A stretch of 64,000 nt of DNA, taken from the sequence record DRR378314_1378; one strand, 5' to 3'. How positions within the stretch are numbered: the stretch's first letter is position 1; every line of letters starts with the position of its first letter. The notes beneath the pieces are model-generated. The model saw nothing but the letters and a program-made list of their open reading frames with translations, was not told the DNA's origin and ran no database searches. A program made the translations under genes and the position numbers. This document shows, in pieces, positions 4,072-21,504 of the stretch.

Positions 4072-5068
4072 CTTGGCTCTCAGTGCTCGAGTTAAAACGA
4101 CTCAATGCAATTAAACATGCAGTAAAGTGTTCACGACCTTTAGCCATGGAATAAAGCTGATTATTTAATTTAAGTGCAAAAGCATGATCGTGTAAATGAG
4201 CTTGGGTGATCAAATAGCTTAATTGACTTAGTCTTGCTTCGGCATTACCTTGTAATTGAGAATAGTCGTATATCATTGGTGTAGAAGCATAATTAACAAA
4301 ATCTTTTACCATAAGCTGCTGTGTTTTTGCATAATGTTTCCACGATACTCTTTGTAAACCCATACCATGTTGATGATCAACCAAACTATCAAATTCATCA
4401 ATTCCATTGCCACGTTTTAAATCGCCATCAGTGTTATGACCATCAACCATTAAGTTATTATTTTTATGCGGATTAATTTGCTTAGGATATACAAAAACGG
4501 TTTCTTCGATATGCATGTAACTCCAAACAGAAACCAAACCAAACGGGTACTGACTCAGTAATTTTATTCTTTCTAACGGATAACGTCCTCTGCTTTCGTA
4601 AGGTAATGAAACTGTTATGTCTGTCTTGTGTTTTATGTTATCTAGGTTATGCAATAATTTTTTTTGATAAATAAATTGGAGTGACTGACATAATTTATCT
4701 GTTGAAATATCAAAAACTAAGCGTGGTGAAATAGGGGAGTAGTCATTATTTTTTGATTTAAACTTTACAGTTACACCCTTCACATTGGAGTAACCAATTA
4801 ATATAGCCAAAATCAAAACAACTAACATTAAATAAGCCATAGCCAAAATTAAGTTGTTTTGATAATTTATCCCTAATATAAAATTTAAAACGCAGACAAA
4901 TAAAAAACTACAGCCCATTTTTGAAGGTAAAACATAAATCGTATTATGTTTTAGAGTCAGTGTATTGCCGGTATGTTTATTTTTTAGCAGCTTTCTAAAT
5001 AGTGCCTTTTTAAAGTTAGCAAATAAAAAGCCACTGTGTTTGTCCTTTAACCCCTTTGCAAATAGCAT
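4055..5068 (-). CDS. DUF58 family protein
   Basis: YPFGL and RVSWKHYAK motifs; conserved position between MoxR and transglutaminase. Confidence 0.85.
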   Translation of the reverse strand: MLFAKGLKDKHSGFLFANFKKALFRKLLKNKHTGNTLTLKHNTIYVLPSKMGCSFLFVCVLNFILGINYQNNLILAMAYLMLVVLILAILIGYSNVKGVTVKFKSKNNDYSPISPRLVFDISTDKLCQSLQFIYQKKLLHNLDNIKHKTDITVSLPYESRGRYPLERIKLLSQYPFGLVSVWSYMHIEETVFVYPKQINPHKNNNLMVDGHNTDGDLKRGNGIDEFDSLVDHQHGMGLQRVSWKHYAKTQQLMVKDFVNYASTPMIYDYSQLQGNAEARLSQLSYLITQAHLHDHAFALKLNNQLYSMAKGREHFTACLIALSRFNSSTESQDAKTS

Positions 5069-5071
5069 ATT

Positions 5072-5977
5072 CTACAAAGGCACAGGAACAGCGTTTAATA
5101 ACTGTTTTATTTGTAATTCGCTTGTTTGTTCATCAATTCCTAATCGATGAGCAGTCACACTTTTAAAAACAGTTTGTACATCATCGGGAGTGACAAAGTC
5201 TCTACCTTCTATATAGGCCCAAGCTTGTGCAGCTTTACCCAATGCTATGCTGGCTCTAGGTGACAACGGATTAGCAAAAACGCCGCTTTGGCGAGTATAA
5301 GACACCAGCTCAATAATGTAATCAATGATAGGTTCAGAAATAGCCAATTTTAAAATTTCAGACTGTATATCAATTAGTTGAGAAGAGTTTATGCGTTTAG
5401 GAAGCGATTCATAATCACGATTATTAACACCTAAAATAAGCTTTCTTTCTGCTTCTTTTGGTGGAAAGCCTAAACTTATCCGCATCATAAATCGATCTAA
5501 TTGTGATTCTGGTAAAGGGTAAGTGCCTGATTGATATAAAGGGTTTTGTGTAGCAATGACAAAAAATGGTGTTGGCAGGGGGTATATATCACCATCCATC
5601 GATACTTGTTTTTCTTCCATTGCCTCTAACAATGCACTTTGTGTTTTTGGCCCAGCACGGTTAATTTCATCTGCTAACACGACTTGACTAAAAACCGGTC
5701 CTTTATGAAATGTGAAAGTGTGCTCATTTGAATTAAAAATACTGGCGCCTAAAATATCTGATGGCAGTAAATCACTGGTAAATTGAACTCGCTGATAAGA
5801 TAACCCTAAAACAGATGCAAGTGCATGAGATAATGTAGTTTTTCCCATCCCAGGTAAATCTTCAATCAATAAGTGTCCTTGACTAAATAAGCATGTTAAA
5901 GCGAGTTTAATTTGTGTTTTTTTACCAAAAATTACCTGTGATAAATCATCAATTATTTCTGTGACTGTAGAATGCAT
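5072..5977 (-). CDS. moxR: MoxR family AAA+ ATPase
   Basis: EDLPGMGKTT Walker A, LADEINRA Walker B, ATQNP and LPESQLDRF motifs. Confidence 0.92.
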   Translation of the reverse strand: MHSTVTEIIDDLSQVIFGKKTQIKLALTCLFSQGHLLIEDLPGMGKTTLSHALASVLGLSYQRVQFTSDLLPSDILGASIFNSNEHTFTFHKGPVFSQVVLADEINRAGPKTQSALLEAMEEKQVSMDGDIYPLPTPFFVIATQNPLYQSGTYPLPESQLDRFMMRISLGFPPKEAERKLILGVNNRDYESLPKRINSSQLIDIQSEILKLAISEPIIDYIIELVSYTRQSGVFANPLSPRASIALGKAAQAWAYIEGRDFVTPDDVQTVFKSVTAHRLGIDEQTSELQIKQLLNAVPVPL

Positions 5978-5984
5978 AGTAACC

Positions 5985-6374
5985 TTAAAAATGTTCGACT
6001 ATTTCTAATCGTTTCATTACAGTATCAACTTTTTTTGCGTTGAATGGCTTAGCAATAAAACCTTTAGCGCCGAGCTCCCAAGTATTTTGTACATTCTCTA
6101 AACTATTATGTCCGGAGCACATTACAACATGGGTGTGTGGGTAATTATCATTTAAAAATTCGAGAATTTCAGTACCATCGGTATCCGGTAACTCTATATC
6201 GAGAAAAATGACATTAGGGGATTTTTCTTTGATTAATGATTTTGCAGATTCAAAATCACGGCTTTCCAAAATATCTTCAAAGCCTAACTCAGTTAAGATT
6301 TGATTTAAGTAGTCACGAATATCTTGAACATCATCAATAATCAAAATAGGTTCGAGTGGGCGCACAAATTCCAT
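5985..6374 (-). CDS. Single-domain response regulator (CheY-like receiver)
   Basis: IIDD, FLDIELP and KPF receiver motifs. Confidence 0.9.
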   Translation of the reverse strand: MEFVRPLEPILIIDDVQDIRDYLNQILTELGFEDILESRDFESAKSLIKEKSPNVIFLDIELPDTDGTEILEFLNDNYPHTHVVMCSGHNSLENVQNTWELGAKGFIAKPFNAKKVDTVMKRLEIVEHF

Positions 6375-6566
6375 GTTGTTTACTTCTTGTGATACAGCTT
6401 AAATTGTAGTTTTAATACTATGCTAAGCGATAATGAAGCTCAAGAAAGATACCGTAATAAAACCAACTATTTGAAATAAATCATTATAATGTCCGATACC
6501 GTCTAGTATTGGACATAGAGAGATTGTTCACAGGTATAAAGCAGGTTTGTTGTGTGGCTATTTATA

Positions 6567-6594
6567 ATAACCTATAATTTATATTATGTTAAAT
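6567..6594 (+). other. dif: dif-like XerC/XerD site (attL of the DJR prophage; XerC arm probably the host's)
   Basis: ATAACCTATAA-TTTATA-TTATGTTAAAT: canonical XerD arm plus 6-bp spacer; 18 bp identical to 19494-19511. Confidence 0.9.
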
Positions 6595-6790
6595 GCGATA
6601 TAATCTGTCATTTTGTCGTGTTTCCCTTGTTGGCTTTAAATTTGGCTTGTACCCTTCATTTGCACAAGTTTTCCCGCTTTTGCGTGCGATTAACTAAATT
6701 GATTAAACCCCTATTAATCAATCTAAAAAAATCATCAAAGTTTCTTCCGCGTGGGCGTAAATCAATTACAACGTCAAAGGATAAGGAATT

Positions 6791-7264
6791 ATGACTAACT
6801 TTAAGCAGTTACTTTTTCGTGCTGGATTTATGAATTTTGGTAAGCTTGACCGTAAAGCCGCTATGCAGTTTTTACATATTAAAACTGAGCGCACGCTTGA
6901 GCGTTGGATAGCAGAAAACAAACCATGCCCCCGCGCGGTTGTCATGCTTGAACAACGCATCAGTGGCGCGGTTTCTCAAAATAAATTATGGGATGGTTAT
7001 TATATTTGTCGGGATGGCTACTTGTGGACACCCAGCGGCAAGCGCTATGAAGCAAGCTACATTAACAAAATTGATTTTTTACAGCGCTCTGTGCGTTACA
7101 ACGAAAGTAACGTTGCAGGACTTCAAGCACAAATTGACCATTTGAATGAACTCGTTAAAGCAAGTGACACCCTAAAAACAATTGGAAACGATTTAATTAA
7201 AATGAGTGACCGATTTAAACTAAAGGATATAGTAATGAAATATGGAGACAAAAAAAGAGCATAA
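6791..7264 (+). CDS. HTH + DUF3653-like protein, candidate Xer-activation factor (XafT-like) or regulator
   Basis: N-terminal HTH (AAMQFLHIKTERTLERW), then WDGYYICRDGYLWTPSG and a C-terminal coiled coil; AAGGA RBS; adjacent to attL. Confidence 0.6.
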   Translation: MTNFKQLLFRAGFMNFGKLDRKAAMQFLHIKTERTLERWIAENKPCPRAVVMLEQRISGAVSQNKLWDGYYICRDGYLWTPSGKRYEASYINKIDFLQRSVRYNESNVAGLQAQIDHLNELVKASDTLKTIGNDLIKMSDRFKLKDIVMKYGDKKRA

Positions 7265-7289
7265 ATAAAGGCCGTACATCACGGCCGCT

Positions 7290-8717
7290 TTAATTAATAT
7301 AATCTACTATGTGTTTGTACCTATTCAAAATATCAGGATTTTTCCTTAGCCTGTCCTCTAAGTCATATGATAACCACCAATCTATTTTCATATTTTTATG
7401 TCTAGCTATTTGCTTTTCCAATGCCTCGGTTAAAGCTGTAGTTATTTGAGTATTAACTACTAATAAATATCCGTCAGGCTGGTAATCAGTCAAGCATTCA
7501 AGTGATACATCAGCTCTAGCAACAGATTGTTGCTTTGATTTTTTCAATTTAGTCTTACATTGAACAATCATATTCCCAATATCTTTTGAGTTTATATGGG
7601 ATGCTCTCATGTTGTTTTTAGAATATTTTTTATCAAATGTACAGATTATGTCCCGGCCGTTATCCCCCTGTTGAGTCGGTGCTACTTTTTTAGGGCTATA
7701 AATCCATGGTTCTCTTTCTAGCAATTCTAAAGTTAGGTTTTCGAAATCCGCGCTGTCGTTCCTACAATTTATATTCCATTCAAAATTTCTATCAGAAAAC
7801 AAATAGTAGTTCTCTATGCTTCTTCGTTCAGCTAGAAGCATCAATTCTTTATTGTAAGCATGATGGCTACAATCAAACTCTAGAAATAGTATGTGTTCAA
7901 CGCCTGTTACAATCAGTATATTTTCATGTGTTATAAAATCAACAACACCTGCTTTGTGTTCAAGCTTATTAAGTATTTTCGTTGCTTTTTTCGCGCCTTG
8001 CTTTGGTATTATATTTTTAGCTTTAGAGCCATAGATTTCAATAGTAGATGAAATTCCTTCAAGGTATTTGGATTTATCACTAATTGCCTCAGATAGAAAT
8101 TTAATCATAGATGTGAACTTTGAGCTTTTGATAATGCCCAGTCCCGTTTTTAAGTCTCTAAAGTAATACCAATTAGGTTCATTACGAAAATTCAGAATGT
8201 AGTCTACTTTACGCTTCTCACCTATTATTTTTGTTGCACAATCACCCCAGTCCTTAAATGAATCCATTTCAAAGTATTGATGCTTTGCTTCATTCTCAAA
8301 TATTTCTGATTCCACCTGGTGAATAAACAGAATATCAGTGAGTATGCTATGCATTAGCTCAAAATCTTCAGGTGATAACAATCTTATTTTCTCATTCAAG
8401 GGTTGGCAAGGAAACATAGCCATACCACCTAAAACATCACCACAAAATCCTGTGTTAAGTGACATAAATCTATATGTCACCCCACTACTAACCTTTGAAT
8501 AAGAAGCTAGTAAAATAGGCAGTATAAGAGCGAAATCTTGATTGTGGTAGTCGTCAGCCTCAAAATAGCAGAAGGGTATATAAAACCCCTCCTCCTTTAT
8601 TAACTTAATCCTCCAGTGATTACAGCAGCTAAAGAATAGCTCTATATCTCCCGACTCCACACATTCCTTAATGACATACCCATCCTTTTTACATCTTTCG
8701 AGAAACTCTTGAACCAT
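7290..8717 (-). CDS. Cargo protein with C-terminal Mrr-like PD-(D/E)XK restriction endonuclease domain
   Basis: ADFENLTLELL...GDNGRDI...IVQCKT motifs; AT-rich; lies after the lysis genes. Confidence 0.7.
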   Translation of the reverse strand: MVQEFLERCKKDGYVIKECVESGDIELFFSCCNHWRIKLIKEEGFYIPFCYFEADDYHNQDFALILPILLASYSKVSSGVTYRFMSLNTGFCGDVLGGMAMFPCQPLNEKIRLLSPEDFELMHSILTDILFIHQVESEIFENEAKHQYFEMDSFKDWGDCATKIIGEKRKVDYILNFRNEPNWYYFRDLKTGLGIIKSSKFTSMIKFLSEAISDKSKYLEGISSTIEIYGSKAKNIIPKQGAKKATKILNKLEHKAGVVDFITHENILIVTGVEHILFLEFDCSHHAYNKELMLLAERRSIENYYLFSDRNFEWNINCRNDSADFENLTLELLEREPWIYSPKKVAPTQQGDNGRDIICTFDKKYSKNNMRASHINSKDIGNMIVQCKTKLKKSKQQSVARADVSLECLTDYQPDGYLLVVNTQITTALTEALEKQIARHKNMKIDWWLSYDLEDRLRKNPDILNRYKHIVDYIN

Positions 8718-8756
8718 CTTTACATCCCTTTAATACATAATATCTATATAATTCCA

Positions 8757-8912
8757 TTAATTAAGTGCATTTACTAGTGCCTCAACTAATTCATCATCCA
8801 GTTTATTGTCTGATTTTTCTGCTAGGTGCTTTGCAGTCGCTAAACACACTCTTTTTACAAAAGCCTCAGTTAGTAGTTTAACCGCTAAATATTTACCAAT
8901 TGCCGTTAGCAT
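8757..8912 (-). CDS. PM2 P18-like small lysis protein (51 aa; not in ORF track)
   Basis: MLTAIGKYLAVKLLTEAFVKRVCLATAKHLAEKSDNKLDDELVEALVNALN; last gene of late operon; GGAGG RBS. Confidence 0.65.
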   Translation of the reverse strand: MLTAIGKYLAVKLLTEAFVKRVCLATAKHLAEKSDNKLDDELVEALVNALN

Positions 8913-9055
8913 AATTTACCCTCCAGTAATTCAACTCTGTTTTCCAATTTATTAATAATGGCTTTTAGCCAGTTAATATCATTTTTTAATGTTGCGATTG
9001 TTCCCGCAGATGCAGCAACTTGAACAACAATGATTAATACCGTGTTTGTATCCAT
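8906..9055 (-). CDS. PM2 P17-like holin candidate (49 aa; not in ORF track)
   Basis: MDTNTVLIIVVQVAASAGTIATLKNDINWLK...: one hydrophobic segment plus coiled coil; translationally coupled to neighbours. Confidence 0.6.
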   Translation of the reverse strand: MDTNTVLIIVVQVAASAGTIATLKNDINWLKAIINKLENRVELLEGKLC

Positions 9056-9462
9056 TATGTTCGCGCCGCCGTTGCTATACTGTCCGCTGTTACTGCCGCA
9101 TTTAATAGCGGCCTGTAAATTGGTTTTAATATCAAATCATCGTCAAAGATTTCGTTAAAAAAACCTTCATGGTCGTCATGCGCTGCAACCATGGCTTTTA
9201 GCCAAGTCATATTAGCGATTTTGTAATTGTGGTCGAGCTTATCCCGATTAAGCACAAAGCCCGCGTTTGGGTACTTGATGTAACTACTGTCATTCACAAA
9301 GAATTGAATTTCAGCCAGTAGCTTACTAATCGGCTTTGTTACTGGCGCGATAGCTTCACGGCTTGTTTTGATAAACCGCGTTAACGCATAGTAAGCGGCG
9401 CACATGATAAAAATGGTCGGTAAATTGCGTTCGATAGTATTAACCATAAAACCCCCTTTCAA
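9055..9462 (-). CDS. PM2 P6-like virion membrane protein
   Basis: N-terminal TM segment; size and position after the P5-like gene. Confidence 0.6.
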   Translation of the reverse strand: MKGGFMVNTIERNLPTIFIMCAAYYALTRFIKTSREAIAPVTKPISKLLAEIQFFVNDSSYIKYPNAGFVLNRDKLDHNYKIANMTWLKAMVAAHDDHEGFFNEIFDDDLILKPIYRPLLNAAVTADSIATAART

Positions 9463-9910
9463 ACCCCTGTTTTATCTCTGTCATTGAATATGGGTTTTCG
9501 CCATTTTCCATGTGAATCATTGCCGCGATAACTTCGGGATAACTGTCGTCATTTAGCGGTGTATCAGGTGAAACCCCCGCCTTATGACTAACAAAATTAA
9601 TATAATTAGCGGTGTCGTTTTCGTTCTCAGGAGCCCATCGCGACACAATGCCGCTAATGGTGTTTATCTGATATTTGATAGCGTAATTCCTTAGAATACG
9701 CGCCGCAGCTCGCAAACCGTAAAACGGGGCGCTAAATACAACAAAGCGCCCGTCATCCCCCGCCATGCCTTCCCATGCGTCTGCGGTTTTTTCAATGTTC
9801 AACGGATTGTTATTGCGAATGCCGCGCGGTGCATCGCTTAATTTTGACGGGTAAAGCACAAAGCCCAAACCCGCCAGCGCAACTAATAAAGCATGTTTAA
9901 TTTTCATCAT
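9440..9910 (-). CDS. PM2 P5-like virion/lytic protein
   Basis: N-terminal TM; RGIRNNNPLNI...RWAPENENDT...HMENG motifs. Confidence 0.8.
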   Translation of the reverse strand: MMKIKHALLVALAGLGFVLYPSKLSDAPRGIRNNNPLNIEKTADAWEGMAGDDGRFVVFSAPFYGLRAAARILRNYAIKYQINTISGIVSRWAPENENDTANYINFVSHKAGVSPDTPLNDDSYPEVIAAMIHMENGENPYSMTEIKQGFERGFYG

Positions 9911-10878
9911 GCGCGCTCCTGCGTTATCTGGACAACGCCACCAATCGCGTAAACCTCATTATCCGTCCAAACTCGGTTAAAGCGTGAGTTTGCAACATCC
10001 CCATCAACCTGCCCATTCGTCCCCGACTGTTCAACCATAAAAAACCTGTGCGCGCCCGCTGACAAAGCAATTCCAGACGCACCATTCCAAGCAATCTCGC
10101 CATAAAAAGGCCCCCCACTACTCCAACCATAGTCACCCAATGCTTCCGTTGTAGGGTCGCCCACCGTATAAAACAGTTTTGGGGAGCCGCTTTGCTCTAC
10201 TAAATATTCAAGCACCACGTTAATCTTAAAGGGTACGCCGTCCATGCGGCTTGGTACAATTAAATCAAAATATGGAACGTTTAAGCTTTCAAGCTGCGAG
10301 CGCGTTAAACTTCTTCCGTATTGCCAAGGCATAACCCCGTTCTTTATTGTTCCGCTGTTTTTGAATAGCTCCTGCTCTGCGCTGTCGGTTATCCAGCACT
10401 TAACATCACCATAGGCGGTTAATTCAAACTCTTGATTTGCTTTGTATTTACGGCCATTTTGAACAACGCCCTCAACCACTTTCAAGTCTTGCCCACCTAT
10501 CCAAATATCATTATCACACTCAAGACGGGCGATAATGCGCGACGGGTCATTTTCAAGCAGATTGTAAATGCCATTACCAATGAATTCTTGTGAACCTAAA
10601 ATAGTTTGTTGACGGGTCGAGACCTGCTTAAAATCGAACGGCACTTTGCCCGCCCATATAGCCAGCTCTTGCGGTGCATCACTAACTAGTGTGACTTTAT
10701 CAAACTCAATGTCGTTTAAGCTCATGCCTTGCCACACAATCGAATCCATGACCACAGAGCCTTGCATGTATACACGAATACGTGTAACAGGCGCAGCCTT
10801 TAAAACGTGTATGCTTTTACCGTACTGATTAACTTCAAACACTTTGCCCGCAGGTAAATCACCTGATTCAAAAATCAT
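9907..10878 (-). CDS. Spike / receptor-binding protein (PM2 P1 position)
   Basis: 323 aa, beta-rich; synteny between P10-like and P5-like genes. Confidence 0.6.
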   Translation of the reverse strand: MIFESGDLPAGKVFEVNQYGKSIHVLKAAPVTRIRVYMQGSVVMDSIVWQGMSLNDIEFDKVTLVSDAPQELAIWAGKVPFDFKQVSTRQQTILGSQEFIGNGIYNLLENDPSRIIARLECDNDIWIGGQDLKVVEGVVQNGRKYKANQEFELTAYGDVKCWITDSAEQELFKNSGTIKNGVMPWQYGRSLTRSQLESLNVPYFDLIVPSRMDGVPFKINVVLEYLVEQSGSPKLFYTVGDPTTEALGDYGWSSGGPFYGEIAWNGASGIALSAGAHRFFMVEQSGTNGQVDGDVANSRFNRVWTDNEVYAIGGVVQITQERA

Positions 10879-11849
10879 TATTTGCGCCCCATAAATAAAG
10901 CTAGAATTGCAACACCACCTAAACCGATAACAATATAGGTCATTGATTTGTTGGTACTGATTGCGAGTTGTTGACCGTCTGAGCGGCTTGCATGGTCTGC
11001 AAACTGCATTGCTTGCTTATGTGCCAGAATCGTTTGGTCTCCCGCGTTATTGTACGCTTCACTGATTTTATCGACTGCACCCTCGGCCAGTGCTGCCGCC
11101 AGATTGCTGTTATTATCAATCGAGTAATAAGCTAAATCAGCCATGCCTTGATTGGCGTTTTCTATCGCACCCGTTGTGGTCAACAACGCGTTATTGGAAA
11201 AGGCTGTATTGTTGCCGTGCATATTTTCGGCGCTTTGGATGACTGCATAGGCTAAATCGCTATTTTCAGCAATGGCCGAATCAGCCAGTGCATTTTGTGC
11301 ATTGATACTATCGCTTGCCAGATTACTATTAGCCGCTAGCGCATCGGAGCCAAAACCAAGCGAACTCGCCATAATATCAAGCATCCCGCTTTGCGTATCG
11401 CGAGCAAAATCAAATGCGTTATCCTGAGCACCACCCATTGCATCAAGTACATTATTGCCAAAATCAAAGGCGTTATCCTGAGCTCGTCCCGCTGCAATTA
11501 ATGAGTCATTACCAAAGTTAAACGCCATACTTGCGTTGTCGTTGGCAAAGTCGAGCGAATCTCGATTAACATCGCTTGCAAAATCGAACGCGTTTGAAGT
11601 GACATTTTCGGTCATGTATGCGTTATCGCTGGCAATATCGCCAACGGTCGCACCCATTTCGGCTACATTGCCGTTCATATCGCCCCAAATACCTATCAAG
11701 CCATCTACTAGGCCGTGGTCTGTTTGGGTGATGTTATAAGAATTACCATTCCCGTTTGTAATATAGCCGTTATTATCACCTTCAACACCGATACTTGTAC
11801 TTGTGTTGTTAGTGGTTTGATTACTGTTAGAGCGTGATTTACTGCCCAT
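10878..11849 (-). CDS. PM2 P10-like virion protein
   Basis: Probable start MGSKSRSNS; NGNGN and TDHG motifs; A/N/D-rich repeats; C-terminal TM. Confidence 0.7.
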   Translation of the reverse strand: MGSKSRSNSNQTTNNTSTSIGVEGDNNGYITNGNGNSYNITQTDHGLVDGLIGIWGDMNGNVAEMGATVGDIASDNAYMTENVTSNAFDFASDVNRDSLDFANDNASMAFNFGNDSLIAAGRAQDNAFDFGNNVLDAMGGAQDNAFDFARDTQSGMLDIMASSLGFGSDALAANSNLASDSINAQNALADSAIAENSDLAYAVIQSAENMHGNNTAFSNNALLTTTGAIENANQGMADLAYYSIDNNSNLAAALAEGAVDKISEAYNNAGDQTILAHKQAMQFADHASRSDGQQLAISTNKSMTYIVIGLGGVAILALFMGRK

Positions 11850-12204
11850 GTAGCACCATCCTAAAAACCGCGTACCCAGACGGCGCGGTCTCAAAAAAGT
11901 TGAAATTACAATGCTTGAGTAAGCGCGTTAGCGCTGATCGCTTGGTGTGGAATAGAATTGATGTTAAGCCGAGCTTTTTAGCTAGCTTGATTACAATGTA
12001 GCTTGCTTGCTTTAGGTTTTGCCCTTGAGCACATACAACCGTCAATGAGCGCCCATCAACTCTTAAAACAAAATAAACACCGCAAATATTAACGAAACGC
12101 GAAACGCCTTTTTCAACCTCGCGTTTAACGCAGTTAAAATCAGCAAGCGAACCCGCCGCTTGCTCGATTTTGTGAAGTTCGGAAAACCGACAGAACTCAA
12201 GCAT
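11839..12204 (-). CDS. PM2 gp-j-like protein
   Basis: Position between P8-like and P10-like genes; ILFHTKR motif. Confidence 0.55.
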   Translation of the reverse strand: MLEFCRFSELHKIEQAAGSLADFNCVKREVEKGVSRFVNICGVYFVLRVDGRSLTVVCAQGQNLKQASYIVIKLAKKLGLTSILFHTKRSALTRLLKHCNFNFFETAPSGYAVFRMVLHGQ

Positions 12205-12380
12205 TATTTTTTAAGTAAAAATAAAGCAACTAAAGCCACAGCGCCGATAATCAGAATTTGATTATTATTGCTGGAACCAAAGCTAACCGAGCCACCATGA
12301 AAACCAACCTTTGCGGATTGGTCTCCCGTTCCCGAACTTGCCGCGCTTGAATTGCTGGCACTCATGCCGCCGCCACCCAT
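12204..12380 (-). CDS. PM2 P8-like membrane protein (58 aa; not in ORF track)
   Basis: MGGGGMSASNSSAASSGTGDQ...GGSVSFGSSNNNQILIIGAVALVALFLLKK resembles PM2 P8 as recalled. Confidence 0.75.
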   Translation of the reverse strand: MGGGGMSASNSSAASSGTGDQSAKVGFHGGSVSFGSSNNNQILIIGAVALVALFLLKK

Positions 12381-12493
12381 TACACCGCCGCCTTATCTTT
12401 ACGCATGTATTCACGGACTTTTTCAGCAACGATTGCACCGATTGCCGCGATTGCCACAGCGTAAGCAAACGCTTTTAAGCCTTTTTTACTCAT
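12380..12493 (-). CDS. PM2 P4-like small membrane protein (37 aa; not in ORF track)
   Basis: MSKKGLKAFAYAVAIAAIGAIVAEKVREYMRKDKAAV; start and stop overlap both neighbours. Confidence 0.65.
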   Translation of the reverse strand: MSKKGLKAFAYAVAIAAIGAIVAEKVREYMRKDKAAV

Positions 12494-12876
12494 GATTTCG
12501 CCACCTTTAAAAGAACGCTCACAGCAAGCAACCCACCAAATGCCAGAATAACTTGTTTTTGAGGGAACCCGAACACCATCACTTCGGCTGGTTTTGCAGA
12601 TTGTGCAACCGGTGTTTTTGGTGTATCAACCATCACCGCCGCGCCGTTTTCAAATTCAACGTTGTTTTCATCGTCAATGCGCGCTTGGCCTGTCGATTTT
12701 TTCATTGCTTGAATTTGCTCATACTGCCCGTAAAGGTTTAACGCATTGCCGAGCGCATTATTTACACCACCCGTAAAATTGCCCCATGCTGATTGTTGCG
12801 GCATTACTGCGATATTATCAATCGCATTGGAGGCGGCGGCATTAGCCGCACCCCCTACTGCACCTAAATTAAACAT
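12490..12876 (-). CDS. PM2 P3-like membrane protein
   Basis: Directly after the capsid gene; C-terminal TM. Confidence 0.6.
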   Translation of the reverse strand: MFNLGAVGGAANAAASNAIDNIAVMPQQSAWGNFTGGVNNALGNALNLYGQYEQIQAMKKSTGQARIDDENNVEFENGAAVMVDTPKTPVAQSAKPAEVMVFGFPQKQVILAFGGLLAVSVLLKVAKS

Positions 12877-12884
12877 GCAACCCC

Positions 12885-13694
12885 CTAGAATGAGCTTTTA
12901 GCGTAATCATCAAAGTAGTGAACAACAACCTCGGCGGGCCCAGTTGCCCCCACATCAAGACGCAAGCGCATATCATTGATAAGTGGGTCAAGCATTAGGC
13001 CGCCGAACACATCACCATCAAGCATCAAGTCAATCGCGTGAACACCCGCTTGTGGTTTTCGCCCGTTTTGCTTAAGGATATGGTCGTGCAGGGCTTTCGG
13101 GATGTTATCGCGCCACTTGATATTATTTACTAAGAACTCAGACGAATTGATGTTCGGGTGTTTGATTTCAATAAGTGCAATATACGCACCCACTGGGCGC
13201 GGTAAATCCGCAACCTCTTGAACACCTTCAACTAGATTCATTCGGAATGAGCGACGCTTAAATAACCAGCTCGGCGCAGTCGGTGCGGCCTTTTCGCAGA
13301 ACGCTTTAATGACTGGCGCGGTTGCAGCTTGGTCAATATCAAACTTGATTTGACACAACTTAATGCCCGCAGTACCCAAACCAAAAAAGCGCTCTACAAC
13401 TAAATCAGGTTTCACAGGGCTGCGAACTTCTGAGCGTGCAAAGTGCATCGTTGCATAGCCCGCTAATTTTTCGCGGTTGAAATAATCGTTTTCTTTCAAT
13501 AAATCTTCAAGCGTTGCGTATTCTGTTAGTGTACGACCGTTAATTTCTACCTTAACGTTTTTGATTTGTGCCGCAGTAACGCCCGTAAATAAAAAGTGTA
13601 TTTTTTCATACGTTGCGTTTACTGGTAATGAAAGTGAAGCAGTACCGCCAGCGGTAACGCCTGTAATATTGTTAAGTGGTGAAATCTCGCGCAT
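12885..13694 (-). CDS. Double jelly-roll major capsid protein (PM2 P2-like)
   Basis: 269 aa; GVTAAQIKNVKVEINGR, CQIKFDID, APSWL and ADLPRPVG match PM2 P2 segments as recalled. Confidence 0.93.
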   Translation of the reverse strand: MREISPLNNITGVTAGGTASLSLPVNATYEKIHFLFTGVTAAQIKNVKVEINGRTLTEYATLEDLLKENDYFNREKLAGYATMHFARSEVRSPVKPDLVVERFFGLGTAGIKLCQIKFDIDQAATAPVIKAFCEKAAPTAPSWLFKRRSFRMNLVEGVQEVADLPRPVGAYIALIEIKHPNINSSEFLVNNIKWRDNIPKALHDHILKQNGRKPQAGVHAIDLMLDGDVFGGLMLDPLINDMRLRLDVGATGPAEVVVHYFDDYAKSSF

Positions 13695-13704
13695 GAGCTA
13701 CCCC

Positions 13705-13812
13705 TTAACCTAAAACAATGCGTTTTACTGGACGGGCAGCGCGAACATTTGAAAGAACCGCCAAAATTGCAAGCGTAACGCCCACAGGGATTAAAACTTT
13801 TTTATCTAACAT
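13705..13812 (-). CDS. PM2 P7-like small membrane protein (35 aa; not in ORF track)
   Basis: MLDKKVLIPVGVTLAILAVLSNVRAARPVKRIVLG; AGGT RBS; directly upstream of the capsid gene. Confidence 0.7.
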   Translation of the reverse strand: MLDKKVLIPVGVTLAILAVLSNVRAARPVKRIVLG

Positions 13813-13878
13813 GATTTGATACCTAATTTAATTAAAGGCGCGATTGCCCGTTAAAATTCGGTATTCAATAAATCAATC

Positions 13879-13944
13879 ATTTCGCTCTTTCGTCCAACGG
13901 ATTTCGCTCCCCCTATAGCGAAAAGAGCGAAATTTCGCTCTTTT
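13879..13944. promoter_or_regulatory. Operator cluster upstream of the structural operon (TTTCGCT repeats and a 24-bp perfect palindrome)
   Basis: ATTTCGCTC at 13879 and 13901; AAAAGAGCGAAATTTCGCTCTTTT at 13921-13944. Confidence 0.6.
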
Positions 13945-13946
13945 AT

Positions 13947-14171
13947 TTACTCAACATCAATGAAAACCCCTATCTTCAACCCTAGATGCTCTGCTATTTG
14001 ATCAGCTCTTTCTACTGTTAACTTAGCTTTTCCACTCATAACTCGGCTAAAACTGGCTTGTGATATACCAATTTTTTTCGCTATTACTTCACCTTTAATT
14101 CCCTTTGCTTTCCTTTCCCTTTCAAGTGCAAACCTCAATAAATCAGCCAAGCCTACATCTCGAATATTCAT
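13947..14171 (-). CDS. XRE-family HTH transcriptional regulator
   Basis: IAKKIGISQASFSRVMSGK helix-turn-helix. Confidence 0.85.
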   Translation of the reverse strand: MNIRDVGLADLLRFALERERKAKGIKGEVIAKKIGISQASFSRVMSGKAKLTVERADQIAEHLGLKIGVFIDVE

Positions 14172-15001
14172 TGACCGCCCCGCAAATCATTAAAGGTTAT
14201 CTTTTTACATTCGCCTATGAACTTTGATTTTTTATCAACGTTTATCATGTAGGGTTCAATATTTCCTATTCCGCCGCGCGATTTAACAAGATAATAAAGC
14301 CGCTCATCTTCATACTCTGCGTTTTGCTTACTTAGCTGTATTACGTCCGCTATTTCTGCATCAAGTTCGACTGATATTAACTTTGCATCATGGCGGGATT
14401 CTTGAGCGCCTAACACCTTGCGTGGACTGTTGTTCCATATCGTTTTTGGCACTTCCTGCGAGCGCTGAAAGATGGTGTGAAGGATTAAGCCAAATTTGCG
14501 GCCACCTGTAGCCATTTCGCCTATTATGGTGTCATCTTTACCCGCAGTACTGGCAAGCTTTGCAAGCTCTTCAATGATTACGTGCAACTCCCTGTTACCA
14601 TCTGTTGCCGTCCACATTACCTGTGCAAACCAATGAAGCTCAGCAACGCGGGCATCTTTCAGTTTTGAGCCTTTTAAGGCGGGGCTGAATTGCGGTGAAT
14701 ACGCAACAATGAACTTTTTACCACTTCGCCATGCAGCAGCGAACGCTTCCACGAATTTCGCTCTTGTTTGGTAGTGGTAAACAGGTCGGTTGTTAATGCC
14801 ATTGAACGGGGAGTTTTTGCGGCCATCGTATTTATAATCACCGTACATGTCGAATATGGCTACATGCTCACCTACTAAACCAAGTAGCTTTACGGCGGTT
14901 GTTTTACCGCCGCCAGTACCCGCCAGATAGCAAACATGTTTTGCTTTAAGTGAATTGTTTTCATTAACTGGCACTAATAGTAACCTCACCGCTTTGGTCA
15001 A
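14168..15001 (-). CDS. FtsK/HerA-type genome-packaging ATPase (PM2 P9-like); start codon uncertain
   Basis: AGTGGGKT Walker A, VIIEEL Walker B, GRKFG and FQRSQ motifs. Confidence 0.85.
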   Translation of the reverse strand: MTKAVRLLLVPVNENNSLKAKHVCYLAGTGGGKTTAVKLLGLVGEHVAIFDMYGDYKYDGRKNSPFNGINNRPVYHYQTRAKFVEAFAAAWRSGKKFIVAYSPQFSPALKGSKLKDARVAELHWFAQVMWTATDGNRELHVIIEELAKLASTAGKDDTIIGEMATGGRKFGLILHTIFQRSQEVPKTIWNNSPRKVLGAQESRHDAKLISVELDAEIADVIQLSKQNAEYEDERLYYLVKSRGGIGNIEPYMINVDKKSKFIGECKKITFNDLRGGQ

Positions 15002-15611
15002 ATTGCATGTTAGATTTAGCAGCCTTTTGAGCTTTTAAATCTTCCGCTTTTTGCATGTTAATTTGCTTATAAATTGATAGCCCCGCCATTGCGAGAACAC
15101 CGAATAATTCCAATTCTTCACGATAGCGAATTAGCCACGGTGGGAGCGTTGCGCCTTTGGTGTATTTCGCCAGCACTGGCACGGCTTTTTGTGCAATGAC
15201 TTGCTTTGTGTCGTGGTCGATAGTAACGGGAACGCTAAACATTGATTCAACAAAACCAGCCCCCGTATCAACAAAGAACCCAGCAGCAGCGGCGGTATCT
15301 TCTTCGCTCATTTTCTGTGTTTCGGTTTGCTCTATTTGCTCGCCTGTTTCGCTTTGTGTTTGCGTGGTATTTGCTTGCTGTGCAAGTGCATCGAGTTCGG
15401 CGTATTCTTCATGTAAATTTTGCTCAAACGGAACACCCACATTAATCTCGCTAGCTTGCTCTGATTCCTGCGATTGCTGCAAGTCCTGTGATTGCACCGA
15501 AGATGAAGAATCCGAACCCATTCGTAGCCCCTCCATCGCTTGTGCAACTAGTGTTTTTTTCGGTGCTGTTTGTGTTGTTTCGCTCATTATTTTCGCTCTC
15601 TTTAATTTCAT
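14964..15611 (-). CDS. Hypothetical phage protein (Q/E/S-rich N-terminus, hydrophobic C-terminal segment)
   Basis: Lies in the operon upstream of the ATPase; likely start at MSETT. Confidence 0.55.
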   Translation of the reverse strand: MKLKRAKIMSETTQTAPKKTLVAQAMEGLRMGSDSSSSVQSQDLQQSQESEQASEINVGVPFEQNLHEEYAELDALAQQANTTQTQSETGEQIEQTETQKMSEEDTAAAAGFFVDTGAGFVESMFSVPVTIDHDTKQVIAQKAVPVLAKYTKGATLPPWLIRYREELELFGVLAMAGLSIYKQINMQKAEDLKAQKAAKSNMQFDQSGEVTISAS

Positions 15612-15942
15612 TGTTAACGCTCTGTATCGCTTGTATTACTTCGGGTGGCTGCCATTCATCCGCTTTAATTTCGCTTGGAATTTGCGGGGTGTTTAGTGGT
15701 TGTGCAATTTCGCTTTCAATAGCGGAATTTTCGCCCATGTTTTGCCCTATGGCTTTTTCCCATTTCGCCTGTAGTTTCGCCCCACTTCGTTTATCCATTC
15801 CGCAGTTTGGGCAGTGTAAATATAAATATTGTTTACCCGTTTTTTGTCGGCGAATAGCTGCGAACCCGCCGCAAGCGTCACACTCACAAGCACCTAAATC
15901 AGGATTGCTTGATTTACCTTTAACCGCCATACTCACCCCCAT
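15451..15942 (-). CDS. Zinc-ribbon protein with C-terminal TM (PM2 P14-like activator candidate)
   Basis: CECDAC...HCPNC cysteine pairs; position after the replication gene. Confidence 0.55.
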   Translation of the reverse strand: MGVSMAVKGKSSNPDLGACECDACGGFAAIRRQKTGKQYLYLHCPNCGMDKRSGAKLQAKWEKAIGQNMGENSAIESEIAQPLNTPQIPSEIKADEWQPPEVIQAIQSVNNEIKESENNERNNTNSTEKNTSCTSDGGATNGFGFFIFGAITGLAAIAGIRAS

Positions 15943-16135
15943 TAATTAACTCGTCTAAATCACAAAGCCTTAAAACACGTTCAACGCTCTCAATCCGTGA
16001 ATACAATTCATCAAAACAGGCGATTGCATCATCAATTGCACCCTCAGCCATTTCGATTTTTTTACCCATTTGCAAAGCGCCGAGCTTTTTAGCTTGTTGG
16101 ATTTTTTCTTTTGCGGCGGCTAGTTTTTTACTCAT
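15920..16135 (-). CDS. Small hypothetical protein (PM2 P13 position)
   Basis: Coupled to the replication gene stop; coiled-coil-like. Confidence 0.5.
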   Translation of the reverse strand: MSKKLAAAKEKIQQAKKLGALQMGKKIEMAEGAIDDAIACFDELYSRIESVERVLRLCDLDELINGGEYGG

Positions 16136-18038
16136 AATTAATTGTCTCTTGATGTAATTGGTTATTTCTAACCTTAAATTGTGTGATTGTTCTTAGTGCT
16201 GCATCATCTTCATAGTAAGTTGCACCGCGTAGAACGCTGTTTCTTATCTCTTGAGGTATTAAAGCGATGGGATTCAACCTATCACCCGCGCCTATTTGCC
16301 AATCATTAGCGGGGTGGTTACAGTTATTTTCAGTGCTCCAAGTAGCGCCGCTGTCGCGACTTTTAAGAGAAAAACGCGCGTCACGCGTTGTTAAAAGGCG
16401 AGATTTAAAAACCTGTGTAATACCTACAGTTCGCTTTTTTTGCTCCCCGTACTCGTTAACCCCATCACCCACACGGGAAATTTGAAAAGGCCTTTCAGTA
16501 CGCTTTGCAAACGCACCACCCATAAGATGAATAAACCGCGCAAACTGTGAGTTATCAGCAGCCTTGAAAACTTCACGGAGTCGCTTAGAGCCTCGGCCAA
16601 CTCGCTCAGTTTTTGCGCGTCTAAACTCACGCCATAAACCAACACTTGCACCACCAACAAACTGAAATTGACGAATGCGCCAACGACTAGCCCAAGCACC
16701 CACATTAAGCACAAGGCCACTTTCACTATTAAATTCATTACCTGTTTCATTGTCTGTTTCACCCTCTACATGATTTGCATTAATGTTTTTTGAAATATAT
16801 TTAGCGATATAACCCACCGCCGAACTTTTTGAAGAATCTATTTTTTCAGCAGTAAAACGCGCTTGCTCTGCGCCTTTTTCGTCACCGTCCACTTGCATTG
16901 CATATTGTTTAATTGTGTTTGTTGTTGCTTGTTCATCCTTTGGTAGCATGAACAAAAGCATGTGCCAGTGTGGTGTAGCGTCATGGTGTGGCTCAACAAC
17001 GCGAACGCCAAAAACAGGAACGCCCGCCTTTGCTAATTCGGCGCGGACTTTTGCCCACTGATTAACTAAAAAGGCTTGTGTTTCTTTCGGGGTCGCATTG
17101 TTGTATTTTTTGCTGTTTGCGTGGTATTTACTCGGCGCGGTAATGGTATAAAACACAGCATTCATACCTTGCGTTTCTGCATATTCTTCATAACCCCGAA
17201 TACGTACCATTAATTCAACGCGGCGAATCTCTGGATTAGAAACCGACCCCTTGAACACCTCAGCCAAGTCGAGAATGGTTTCGCCGTCTTCGCTTTCAAG
17301 TTGCATTGAATCCAACCATTCCTGCTGGGATTTTTTGGCATAACGAAATTCATTAACGGCCTGTAATGACGCGTAAGGGCTGTTTTTCTTATTCACTAAG
17401 CCAAGAGTTATGTTTAAGTGCTCTAAGGTCATATCACGCATTCTATTAAGCTTGCGTAGCCACCACTTATCACAACACATGCGCTTAATGGCTATTTCTA
17501 ATTTATCCGCCATTAATTCACTATTGCCGCCCTTTTCCATAAACGTTTGGAACACCGACCAAGCGGGGGCGGTTTCGAGCTGGCTAACAGTAAATTCAGC
17601 CAATTTTTTATAGGTGGTTAATACAAGTGCGGTGGCCTGTGCAAGCGTCATATCTTTATCAAATGTGATAATGCTTTCTTGCTGGCAAACTAGCGCTAAT
17701 TGCTTTGCTTTATCGCGGCGGCATTTTTCACGTTGCAATTCAGTGATTGATAATGGTGAACGGGCCACTATTTCATTTACGCGCTTTATTAGTTCGCGTA
17801 AATAAATATTAGCGCTGCGCTCTGGATTTTTGGCTGTAGCGGAATTAAAGCGGGCGGCGTAAGTCTTTGCGGCGTGGCGGCGCAGGTAAGTGGTAGGTAT
17901 GTTTTTTAGTTGCTCTTTGACGTATTCAGCAGCTTTATCAAACCCAAATGCAGGAGAACAAAACGGCACAGGGCGGACTAACTCAATTGGTTTCAGTCCG
18001 CCTTTTACTGGTTCGTATGCAATTGGTAAACTACGCAT
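16128..18038 (-). CDS. Rolling-circle replication initiator, P2 gpA-like HUH endonuclease
   Basis: FYTITAPSKYH, EPHHDATPHWHML and GYIAKYISKNI (YxxKY), W...WRIRQFQF motifs. Confidence 0.92.
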   Translation of the reverse strand: MRSLPIAYEPVKGGLKPIELVRPVPFCSPAFGFDKAAEYVKEQLKNIPTTYLRRHAAKTYAARFNSATAKNPERSANIYLRELIKRVNEIVARSPLSITELQREKCRRDKAKQLALVCQQESIITFDKDMTLAQATALVLTTYKKLAEFTVSQLETAPAWSVFQTFMEKGGNSELMADKLEIAIKRMCCDKWWLRKLNRMRDMTLEHLNITLGLVNKKNSPYASLQAVNEFRYAKKSQQEWLDSMQLESEDGETILDLAEVFKGSVSNPEIRRVELMVRIRGYEEYAETQGMNAVFYTITAPSKYHANSKKYNNATPKETQAFLVNQWAKVRAELAKAGVPVFGVRVVEPHHDATPHWHMLLFMLPKDEQATTNTIKQYAMQVDGDEKGAEQARFTAEKIDSSKSSAVGYIAKYISKNINANHVEGETDNETGNEFNSESGLVLNVGAWASRWRIRQFQFVGGASVGLWREFRRAKTERVGRGSKRLREVFKAADNSQFARFIHLMGGAFAKRTERPFQISRVGDGVNEYGEQKKRTVGITQVFKSRLLTTRDARFSLKSRDSGATWSTENNCNHPANDWQIGAGDRLNPIALIPQEIRNSVLRGATYYEDDAALRTITQFKVRNNQLHQETINYE

Positions 18039-18297
18039 CTATTAAAAGCGCCGCCCAATCGCACATTGCACCATCTAATAAATGCCCTTCTTCATGCTGT
18101 CCATTATCATGCAGGCAATCAACCAAATCACAAATTAACTCAATTTGCTCGGCGGTAGGCTTTACGTTTAACTCAATCGACTTACCAATTGATTTGCGCC
18201 AACCTCTCGACAACTTAACGGCCACAGCAGATAAAACAATGTGAGCTGTCGCAACGGTAAAATCAAGACCGCCTGTTATGCCTTGCGCTTCATTCAT
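18031..18297 (-). CDS. Hypothetical early phage protein
   Basis: Translationally coupled within the early operon. Confidence 0.55.
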   Translation of the reverse strand: MNEAQGITGGLDFTVATAHIVLSAVAVKLSRGWRKSIGKSIELNVKPTAEQIELICDLVDCLHDNGQHEEGHLLDGAMCDWAALLIDA

Positions 18298-18518
18298 AAC
18301 GTCACCATTTTAGATTGCGTTGCGCGAACTAAAGCGCGGCGGCGCAGCTCGTCATTTTCGACCGGTGTTTTGATTTGCTCTTTGATTTGATTTTCGCGGG
18401 CAAGCTCTGCTTTTTTATTTTTAAATGCAAGCTTTAGCTGTGCAGCTTTGCCACGCGCATAATCCCAATGACTTTCACTGGACTTTAATTCGGTTATTTC
18501 AACTTTATATTGGCTCAT
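18294..18518 (-). CDS. Hypothetical early phage protein
   Basis: Translationally coupled within the early operon. Confidence 0.55.
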   Translation of the reverse strand: MSQYKVEITELKSSESHWDYARGKAAQLKLAFKNKKAELARENQIKEQIKTPVENDELRRRALVRATQSKMVTL

Positions 18519-18520
18519 AG

Positions 18521-18892
18521 TTAAATAACCTCGCGTAATTTTTCAACCAATCCGCAACCAATACCAATCCTTTCGGGGTTTGAGTCTTGGAAATCTACAA
18601 AAGTATTAAGGCGCTCTTTGGCTGTTTTAATGTGCTCTTTTACGTGCTCTGTTTGAACTTGTTTCTCAAGGCATGATAGATAACCAATTATTGCGGCTAT
18701 GCTTGCTTGGTCTTTACCTCTGAACACAATCACTGGTTCATCTTCTGGTATCCAGTAGCCACCGTTATGACTCCAGATTCTACTATTTAAAAAACAGTAT
18801 TTAGGGTCTTGATTTGGTGTTGGTAGTGGGCTTGGTGCTGGGGTATTCCAGTCTGCATTTTTAACTGGTCTTAGTGTTGTTGCGCTATTCAT
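18521..18892 (-). CDS. Hypothetical early phage protein (first gene of early operon)
   Basis: AAGGTGA RBS; DEPVIVFRGKD motif. Confidence 0.6.
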   Translation of the reverse strand: MNSATTLRPVKNADWNTPAPSPLPTPNQDPKYCFLNSRIWSHNGGYWIPEDEPVIVFRGKDQASIAAIIGYLSCLEKQVQTEHVKEHIKTAKERLNTFVDFQDSNPERIGIGCGLVEKLREVI

Positions 18893-18939
18893 AAATCACC
18901 TTTGGCATTGGTAAATTGATTCGTTCACTTTGGCTTAAT

Positions 18940-18975
18940 AAAAAAGCGGTTACTGTATATTTAAACAGTAACCGC
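18940..18975 (-). terminator. Intrinsic terminator in the leader of the early operon
   Basis: Perfect 11-bp stem GCGGTTACTGT/ACAGTAACCGC followed by T6 on the minus strand. Confidence 0.75.
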
Positions 18976-19042
18976 CAAGCCAAAGGACATGGTTAACAGG
19001 CGGTTAAGCTTGTTGAAATGGATGATAGACCACGCAGCGCCA

Positions 19043-19086
19043 CCTAGTCTACATCATGCCATCTAGTGCATATCATGTGGACTAGG
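19043..19086. promoter_or_regulatory. Inverted-repeat operator in the divergent promoter region
   Basis: CCTAGTCTACAT-N20-ATGTGGACTAGG (1 mismatch) between the repressor and the early operon. Confidence 0.5.
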
Positions 19087-19129
19087 ACTATAATCAAAAA
19101 AGTGACATGCCAAGACGGACACAAAACGT

Positions 19130-19408
19130 ATGAAAATAACGAATTCATTTGAGCTTTTAGAATGGTTTAAAAGCACCGCCGATATTGACTCTGATTACAT
19201 GGTTAGTAAATTGACTGGCATATCAAAACAAACGCTTAGCCATGTAAGAACTGGCGACCGTGATTTTTCAGAAACTATATCGTTGCAACTTCTTTTGATT
19301 GCTGAACACCCTGAACCCTTAAAAACACTGGCTTTAATAGAGGCTGACAAGGCGGAAAAGAAGGGTAAGCCAGAGGTGGCTAAAATGTGGCGTAAAAGTG
19401 CAGCTTAG
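19130..19408 (+). CDS. DUF3693-like HTH repressor candidate
   Basis: SDYMVSKLTGISKQTLSHVRTG HTH and C-terminal EADKA...W; divergent from the early operon. Confidence 0.7.
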   Translation: MKITNSFELLEWFKSTADIDSDYMVSKLTGISKQTLSHVRTGDRDFSETISLQLLLIAEHPEPLKTLALIEADKAEKKGKPEVAKMWRKSAA

Positions 19409-19483
19409 ATGAAAACTACCCCCGACATTTTGTCGGTCTCGTTTTGTGAAAATGCCCGCCCCGCGCGGGTTGTAAGCGTATGT

Positions 19484-19511
19484 TATGCTTACGATTTATA
19501 TTATGTTAAAT
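19484..19511 (+). other. dif: dif-like XerC/XerD site (attR; XerC arm probably phage-derived)
   Basis: TATGCTTACGA-TTTATA-TTATGTTAAAT. Confidence 0.9.
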
Positions 19512-19528
19512 AAGATAAATTAATAACC

Positions 19529-19533
19529 ATAGC
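19529..19533 (+). repeat. 5-bp target-site duplication ATAGC (left copy)
   Basis: Immediately precedes TGTAAG; identical to 63978-63982. Confidence 0.9.
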
Positions 19534-19746
19534 TGTAAGGGGTTGTTCATTTCTAGAATAATGATGATATGAGGATTTTCGCCCTCGTCTTTTGGAAAAG
19601 CCCATTATTACTGGGTTTGGTGAACCATGAGCGCAAAATTAAGTAAATTCGGATTACGCTTGGTTTTAGACGAAACCTGTTCAAACTGACTCATTCCCCG
19701 ATCATTCCTGCTCATTATACGTTTAGAATTAGATCATTCCTGATCG

Positions 19747-19796
19747 TTTAACTTTCCTTTAAATACACTTTAAACGCCTTTTAAACGCTATTTAAA
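19747..19796. repeat. TTTAAA array, 11-bp period (left end)
   Basis: TTTAA(A/C) at 19747, 19758, 19769, 19780, 19791. Confidence 0.85.
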
Positions 19797-19815
19797 TATT
19801 TTGAGCTGCCGATGT

Positions 19816-20958: not shown

Positions 20959-20959
20959 A

Positions 20960-21502: not shown

Positions 21503-21504
21503 AG

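Follow-up and report, generated by a model that had tools for sequence, protein, structure and literature searches.

P15 beside the regenerated dif of a PM2-like corticovirus prophage, a diverged HTH-DUF3653 protein and candidate Xer activation factor

We analysed a stretch of 64,000 nucleotides (sequence record DRR378314_1378; hereafter the window) and, from sequence comparison, judge it fairly likely that the gene at 6791-7264 is P15 (ORF a) of a PM2-like corticovirus residing as an IMEX at its host's dif site, and that it encodes a diverged HTH-DUF3653 protein which would act as an Xer activation factor. The HTH-DUF3653 superfamily contains two experimentally shown Xer activation factors, XafT of the TLC phage and XafV of the VGJ phage; the former was established in PMC6744903 and PMC9226527, and the latter (ORF136, 18% identical to XafT, its gene lying right beside attP) is reported in the accessible part of a 2026 preprint (10.64898/2026.06.12.731946). 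The link between P15 and XafT was published before as an inference (PMC12715192, December 2025), and the available portion of that study defines dif-type double-jelly-roll (DJR) prophages, calls P15 a xafT homologue, places the attP of PM2 at 747-763 and describes left-armed and right-armed attP sites and a cargo slot adjoining p15. An earlier study (PMC9966536, 2023) describes a presumptive dif site in PM2 and the XerCD integration of NO16-like DJR phages. As the gene, the family link and the PM2 attP are already in print, what the window contributes is a further example, together with some comparative support that is independent. The literature that we searched contained no biochemical test or experiment on any P15-type protein.

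The gene and its product are as follows:

6791..7264, + strand: ORF a/P15 homologue of 157 aa, with an HTH, a DUF3653-like core and a long C-terminal helix

An AAGGA Shine-Dalgarno-like stretch lies 8 nt upstream of the ATG, and residues 67-83 of the protein read WDGYYICRDGYLWTPSG. The ORF claimed in an earlier note on this DNA is real, and the HTH claimed with it was borne out by an AlphaFold2 model (mean pLDDT 93.3, pTM 0.59) with a three-helix, HTH-like N-terminus (helices 21-28, 33-42 and 47-57), followed by a short beta region (71-87), a long helix of 54 residues (88-141) and a last helix (144-156). The same note had read a coiled coil here; as the long helix is known from a predicted model, this amounts to the prediction of a long helix, with oligomerisation putative. 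Foldseek returned no match in the PDB at E<=0.001, the rows obtained being weak Cro/cI-type HTHs with no solved DUF3653 structure among them, and a predicted complex of P. aliena XerD (285 aa) with residues 1-110 of the cognate ORF a homologue scored 0.00 (mark 0.32), which counts neither way. A tblastn search of 50,697 phage records matched five, each at 77-80% identity, namely PM2 and Cr39582 (two accessions each) and GXT1010, and two RefSeq records name the products of PM2 ORF a and Cr39582 gp01 'DUF3653 domain-containing protein'. The protein also matched phrog_18872 over residues 1-157 (E 2.9e-86), and this full-length similarity, combined with the position that the gene has kept in a syntenic PM2-like genome, places it in the P15/ORF a family. 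A word-indexed search yielded 52 homologues out of 59 candidates, the named sources being mostly Pseudoalteromonas.

The gene lies at the left end of a prophage of 12.9 kb, a PM2-like corticovirus (about 6567-19511), which corresponds to the PM2 map reversed and opened between PM2 ORF c and ORF a, and which comprises, besides the gene itself:

6567..6594, + strand: attL, the regenerated full dif, with the host XerC arm ATAACCTATAA (6567-6577), the central TTTATA (6578-6583) and the XerD arm TTATGTTAAAT (6584-6594)
6595..6790, + strand: spacer of 196 bp from attP/attL to the gene, with conserved blocks AAGTTTTC, CAATCTAAAAAAATCAT and CTTCCGCG
7270..7286, scored on both strands: terminator-like hairpin after the 6791-7264 gene
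7290..8717, - strand: cargo gene of 475 aa, lacking in PM2, in the variable slot that separates the Xaf-like gene from the lysis genes
8757..18892, - strand: PM2-like body of lysis and virion genes (Pfam, PHROGs)
9907-10878, - strand: spike P1 (Pfam)
12885-13694, - strand: coat P2 (PM2 double-jelly-roll P2_N E 3.4e-23, P2_C E 7.7e-22)
13947-14171, - strand: Xre-type HTH gene (HTH_3 E 4e-9)
14168-15001, - strand: packaging ATPase, HerA-like (Pfam)
16128-18038, - strand: GPA-type Rep (Pfam E 1.9e-117)
19130..19408, + strand: ORF c/P16-like HTH protein (phrog_4441 'HTH DNA binding protein', E 2.5e-23)
19422-19436: terminator-like hairpin after the ORF c homologue
19484..19511, + strand: attR, with the phage XerC-side arm TATGCTTACGA (19484-19494), the central TTTATA and the XerD arm TTATGTTAAAT

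The earlier note had assigned the element to a double-jelly-roll virus, and the P2_N and P2_C domains, spike P1, the GPA-type Rep and membrane protein P3, which Pfam also finds in the prophage body, confirm it; PHROGs add a P5-type endolysin and a virion protein. The P16-like gene sits where ORF c does in PM2, directly upstream of attP in the circular phage, and PM2 ORF a has a hairpin at the equivalent 3' position. The Xre-type HTH gene separates the packaging ATPase and coat genes, where the PM2 map has the small gene VII only. The XerD-family HMM found no tyrosine recombinase in window positions 3001-23000, nor did the Pfam scan of 21 prophage ORFs show one. The cargo protein has no Pfam or PHROG family; its C-terminus (residues 343-463) weakly matches the PADLOC candidate-defence family PDC-M58A (E 5.7e-5), and Mrr_cat is found in 83% of the members of its nearest ESM Atlas clusters (score 0.97), which is no more than a lead. 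The gene probably encodes a defence-type nuclease with an Mrr-type, restriction-endonuclease-like C-terminus. Directly right of attR, Mu-like phage genes fill 19816-63791 in two blocks of opposite orientation: a minus-strand block (19.8-34 kb) with Mu F, Mu portal, DUF1804, DUF3164 and a 965-aa rve + Mu-transpos_C + AAA_22 protein, and a plus-strand block (41.5-63.8 kb) with a tape measure and very large tail proteins, with an S24 repressor at 35887 (+) and a low-GC stretch (0.32) at 36-40 kb between the blocks. This region looks like an inversion or two elements. The GC skew of the window is dominated by prophage gene orientation.

The 18-mer ATTTATATTATGTTAAAT occurs in exactly two + strand copies, at 6577-6594 and 19494-19511, and with up to three mismatches it has four matches, against 0.36 expected, a number reached by 1 of 100 shuffles. 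The XerD arm of attL ends 196 bp upstream of the ATG, and the gene does therefore lie just inside a dif junction, as had been claimed. Of 41 Pseudoalteromonas genomes, 38 contain the 24-mer CCTATAATTTATATTATGTTAAAT (at most 2 mismatches), 34 of them in one copy and four in two, the second copies mostly having TTTACG as their central region, and the reversed pattern used as a control gave 0 matches; the left-junction type is the dif of the genus Pseudoalteromonas. The right-junction type is present in PM2 and Cr39582, between ORF c and ORF a. An empty site was seen as well: in a contig of run X2, an oyster metagenome, 6576 is joined to 19494 over 18 letters that fit either side, and contigs of two further runs (X4 and X13) end in ...CCTATA immediately before 19494, as loose ends of an unoccupied dif; a contig of X1 spans the whole stretch, and this run, from which the DNA may come, is not independent evidence. 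With dif-type sites on both flanks, one of them regenerating the dif that is found genus-wide, with an empty site and with no integrase, the element is an IMEX, and it is mobile.

At attR, the XerC-side arm is degenerate, and the XerD arm and central region are perfect. Free-phage-type contigs, PM2 and four others, carry cttacga (four) or cttacta (one) on the XerC side, and integrated copies carry the host CC[TC]ATAA. Other degenerate arms (CTTATGT, CCTGTGT) occur in more distant prophages of Pseudoalteromonas, and in every case they differ at the innermost bases, which in all phage arms seen were ACGA, ATGT or GTGT as opposed to ATAA in the host, next to the XerC cleavage point.

Several further features of these sites were noted. 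The phage XerC-side arm of attR lies within a 14-pair hairpin (window 19467-19497, GTAAGC...GCTTAC) that abuts the central region and was not seen in PM2, and a third exact XerD arm TTATGTTAAAT, inverted and lacking an XerC arm, is found at 63911-63921 (-), just past the last tail gene of the Mu-like region. In PM2 (663-773), the annotated ORF b starts at an ATG inside the attP XerD arm, and ORF b* just upstream, in the phage arm; the ORF b frame in the prophage (window 6586-6603) stops after 5 codons, and so ORF b is probably no gene. The dif sites of Pseudoalteromonas are of two types, with central TTTATA or TTTACG, and in one P. maricaloris genome both are occupied by prophages whose attP has the matching central region; this suggests that Pseudoalteromonas has phage variants specific to a chromosome, as known for Vibrio IMEX. 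One Pseudoalteromonas assembly (G371) contains a 10,236-nt contig (C308) with both ends made of the att core plus the same 4 nt, which reads as a circular or tandem phage genome, along with separate attL-type and attR-type junctions.

The earlier note had called the protein XafT-like (HTH + DUF3653) by eye, and the call holds at the level of the superfamily, with both curated cut-offs missed. Pfam DUF3653 (PF12375), the check that had been proposed, matched residues 64-96 on profile positions 6-37 of 66 (E 2.4e-4) with 21.6 bits, 0.8 bit short of the gathering score of 22.4, and NCBIfam NF040522 (VC1465_fam, 'Xer recombination activation factor') matched residues 19-101 (E 2.2e-8) with 34.1 bits, 36 bits short of its cut-off of 70. 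On the same NF040522 scale PM2 ORF a scored 31.2, VGJ ORF136 41.8 and a true member (locus L042) 94.3 bits; since XafV, a factor reported as validated, also falls under the cut-off, a sub-threshold score is no argument against function. As to specificity, NF040522 matched 7 of 14 control genomes at E<=0.01, presumably through its HTH half, and 0 of 14 at E<=1e-8, the level at which it matched 9 of 300 genomes of the class, one of them over the cut-off. When 1.84 billion representatives were searched with the family profile, 129 proteins matched at E<=1e-3, and of the 110 homologues aligned (109 of these plus the window protein, with short fragments and one 1811-aa protein left out) 68 matched DUF3653 and 98 matched NF040522 at E<=0.01, the best at 1.7e-28. 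Fifteen short profile matches considered as bona fide XafT were rejected, all 15 being under 70 bits.

Profile comparison carried the assignment further. The ORF a family alignment (A1) matched an alignment of five of the sequences from the 300-genome search, found solely through NF040522 (A7), with an hhalign probability of 98.6% (E 8.8e-16) over 72 columns and residues 19-93, a region that spans the HTH and the W-G-x-L-TP-G core, and the probability was 99.5% against a partly circular set; by BLASTP, the window protein was 31% identical to a true NF040522 member over 65 residues (E 5e-4). Against XafV alone, A1 gave 9% (E 0.0036), the W-G-F...G-x-L-x-P-x-G core aligning nonetheless, and A7 gave 97.1%. 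The protein thus has profile-level homology to the XafT/XafV superfamily across both HTH and DUF3653 core, and its gene lies directly beside the dif-like attP of an integrase-less element.

The missed cut-offs, and the HTH itself, would also suit a protein that regulates transcription and nothing else, an early repressor whose DUF3653-like core is a dimerisation or effector module unrelated to Xer, XerCD then recombining attP with dif through FtsK or basal activity and with no phage factor. Against such a purely regulatory P15 stands the homology to the XafT family in the non-HTH core (residues 58-93), the activity of XafT having been attributed to DUF3653 and not to DNA binding in the available text of PMC6744903.

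The same alternative can be compared with the genomic setting of Xaf-like genes. We surveyed the DNA upstream of the gene in the window and at 20 loci taken from genome and viral contigs, 21 sequences in all (a partly redundant set, L007 and L040 being one contig), of which three had no upstream DNA; among the 18 evaluable loci, 16 had an XerD arm (at most 1 mismatch) with the central region 196-236 bp before the start codon. One of the other two (L009) had no recognisable site within 400 nt upstream of the homologue, and the other (L041), for which no such site was counted, has only 207 nt of upstream sequence. We then took the PM2-type capsid as the starting point: among 401 genomes of the order, PF18628 turned up in 22, at 25 places, for which up to 10 kb was fetched per side, and genes were scored as Xaf-like (A3 HMM, E<=1e-10) or as tyrosine recombinases (XerD-family HMM, E<=1e-10). 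A Xaf-like gene was present at 13 places, a tyrosine recombinase without a Xaf-like gene at seven and neither at five (one a 3.9-kb contig and one at a contig end), and no place had both (hypergeometric p ~0.002, relatedness ignored), though a weaker recombinase match (E 9e-6 to 8e-9) lies within 10 kb of three Xaf-positive places. For each of the 13 Xaf-like genes, there is a dif-like 28-mer upstream, at 20-250 bp from the open frame. This tight, repeated linkage to dif-like sites, and the absence from integrase-bearing relatives, are unexpected for a general early repressor.

Both gene-to-site orientations occur among the capsid-survey loci. Three loci with the XerD arm proximal (L100, L105 and L107) have the architecture of the window, with canonical dif beside the gene and a second site with a degenerate XerC arm 10.8-12.4 kb away, just before which an HTH gene ends. 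At another place (G619:C33), two corticovirus-like elements flank one canonical dif, and each has a Xaf-like gene of its own that faces the site, on the XerD-arm side in one element and on the XerC-arm side in the other. In a tree of 22 Xaf-like proteins labelled by the dif arm that faces the gene, the labels changed 5 times, against a mean of 7.6 in 500 shuffles, 20-23 of which were as low, and the Pseudoalteromonas clade (100/99) fell together with a XerC-proximal XafT-like row (96/92), the deep branches not being separated. As the tree yields no clean rule from subclass to orientation, we draw no inference from it on which recombinase is activated.

The earlier note had the gene transcribed independently from just inside the dif junction, a claim that found no support: between attL and the gene (6595-6790) there is no + strand sigma-70-like consensus site (the scan gave 5 sites against 4.7 expected, none upstream of the gene on +). 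What the spacer does contain are the blocks listed above, which are conserved among 8 aligned upstream regions, and, at 6695-6725, an imperfect palindrome (inverted repeat I2, 12 nt, 92% complementary). A promoter-like site across the PM2 attP, its -35 element in the phage arm and its -10 element in the XerD arm (9 of 12 matches), was rejected, being not conserved in the prophage and no more frequent than in shuffles. According to the available text of PMC12715192 and PMC1950889, p16 and p15 form one leftward operon, and a citing passage of PMC1950889 describes P15 and P16 as transcriptional repressors of the leftward early operon. PM2 has no terminator-like site between ORF c and ORF a, and the prophage has one after the ORF c homologue. 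Integration separates the gene from p16. It is shown directly that integration at attP puts the gene at the prophage end opposite to p16 and the promoter, next to the regenerated dif, and this separation may shut the factor off in the lysogen.

The repressor function described for P15 and P16, and the conserved palindrome upstream of the gene, are what a solely regulatory P15 would lead one to expect. Furthermore, PM2 was long deemed strictly lytic and yet keeps P15, a conservation that a regulatory role would explain. Considering this together with the core homology and the linkage to dif, we regard a regulator without a part in Xer recombination as unlikely.

We therefore set out how a P15 that activates Xer recombination might work. 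After infection, the circular genome would express p16-attP-p15 from the leftward early promoter; P15, multimerising through its predicted long helix, would contact the host XerCD through the DUF3653 core and promote FtsK-independent recombination of attP with dif. We lean towards an exchange initiated by XerD, in which the factor would also stabilise a synapse that has a poor XerC arm, and the HTH would probably provide the repressor or regulator role reported for PM2 P15. The central region of attP is wholly identical to that of dif, so that both strand pairs could be exchanged and the reaction would be reversible, allowing excision. The earlier note had proposed that the prophage steers its own integration or excision in the way of XafT. 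Superfamily homology, the position beside attP/dif and the lack of an integrase in the prophage favour self-steering, and 'the same way as XafT' is not established, given a mirror-image attP, a gene on the XerD-arm side and a homologue, XafV, that the accessible part of the preprint describes as working on XerC-initiated reactions only.

The last two of these points could indeed be taken to mean that P15 stimulates XerC-initiated or synapsis-limited reactions, as XafV would, rather than switching on XerD: its gene lies on the XerD-arm side of attP and on the same strand, as xafV does in VGJ, and XafT-like genes lie on the XerC-arm side. We consider this quite unlikely, as the degenerate arm of attP is the XerC one, differing at the bases by the XerC cleavage point in every phage arm seen, the attP central region is fully dif-identical, unlike that of VGJ, and profile similarity is higher to the XafT set (98.6%) than to XafV (9%), albeit with deep relations that the 22-protein tree does not separate. 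It is also conceivable, though we hold it doubtful, that P15-type proteins form a third mechanistic class, in which attP would keep only the XerD arm and central region, XerD would exchange first, a multimeric factor would hold XerC on its non-cognate arm, and integration would cut the factor off from its promoter. The last step would follow from attP lying inside the p16-attP-p15 transcription unit, integration itself making the cut.

If P15 does work as an Xer activator, then the XafT/XafV strategy reaches beyond filamentous phages and their satellites to membrane-containing dsDNA viruses common in marine bacteria, and PM2 and Cr39582 offer a tractable Pseudoalteromonas system for the replacement of FtsK by a small protein. 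The mirror-image attP, its XerC arm degenerate and not its XerD arm, would give a useful natural contrast to TLC. If P15 proteins also form a class of their own as described, the transcription unit would contain a built-in directionality switch, which could likewise explain the unexplained loss of XafT after TLC integration (the protein was undetected after integration, in the available text of PMC9226527), and the classic 'lytic' phage PM2 would be a temperate IMEX.

Among known systems, PM2 P15/ORF a (NP_049890) and Cr39582 gp01 are the closest, with 77-78% full-length identity, the same phrog, the same flanking genes and, as here, a location directly downstream of a dif-like attP. The copy in the window differs from both in being an integrated prophage, apart from its p16-like gene, and from PM2 in having the 475-aa cargo gene after the P15 homologue. 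The dif-type DJR prophages of Vibrio (PMC12715192) and the NO16-like 'Asemoviridae' (PMC9966536) are, in the available text of both studies, likewise integrase-less DJR prophages between dif-like sites, with a P16-attP-P15 module and, from p15 to the lysis genes, a cargo slot of variable content; relative to the Vibrio prophages, the element described here has another host genus and a CCTATAA-type XerC arm, and is otherwise an ordinary member.

XafT (VC1465 of the Vibrio cholerae TLC satellite phage) shares with the window protein an HTH followed by a DUF3653 core, with the profile homology of 98.6%, and its gene likewise adjoins the attP of an element at dif that has no integrase. The window protein differs in its NF040522 score (34.1 bits against a family cut-off of 70) and in an extra helix of ~55 residues. 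Its attP mirrors that of TLC, which has a degenerate XerD arm according to the available text of PMC9226527, whereas here the XerC-side arm is degenerate; the gene is on the XerD-arm side, as opposed to the XerC-arm side in XafT-like loci, and its carrier is a dsDNA membrane-containing virus, where that of XafT is a filamentous phage's satellite. XafV (ORF136 of the Vibrio phage VGJ) resembles it in a sub-threshold NF040522 score (41.8 vs 34.1 bits) and in the order along one strand of XerC arm, central region, XerD arm and gene, found in VGJ and here, but compared directly the two are only weakly similar (hhalign 9%, E 0.0036), the XerC arm of the VGJ attP is canonical and its central region does not match, where ours has a degenerate XerC-side arm and a dif-identical central region, and XafV is reported, in the part of the preprint available, to work solely on XerC-first reactions. 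Lastly, XerD is activated in the cell by the FtsK gamma domain, in whose place a Xaf factor would act (available text of PMC9226527); the corresponding text of PMC6744903 reports no sequence relationship between FtsK and XafT.
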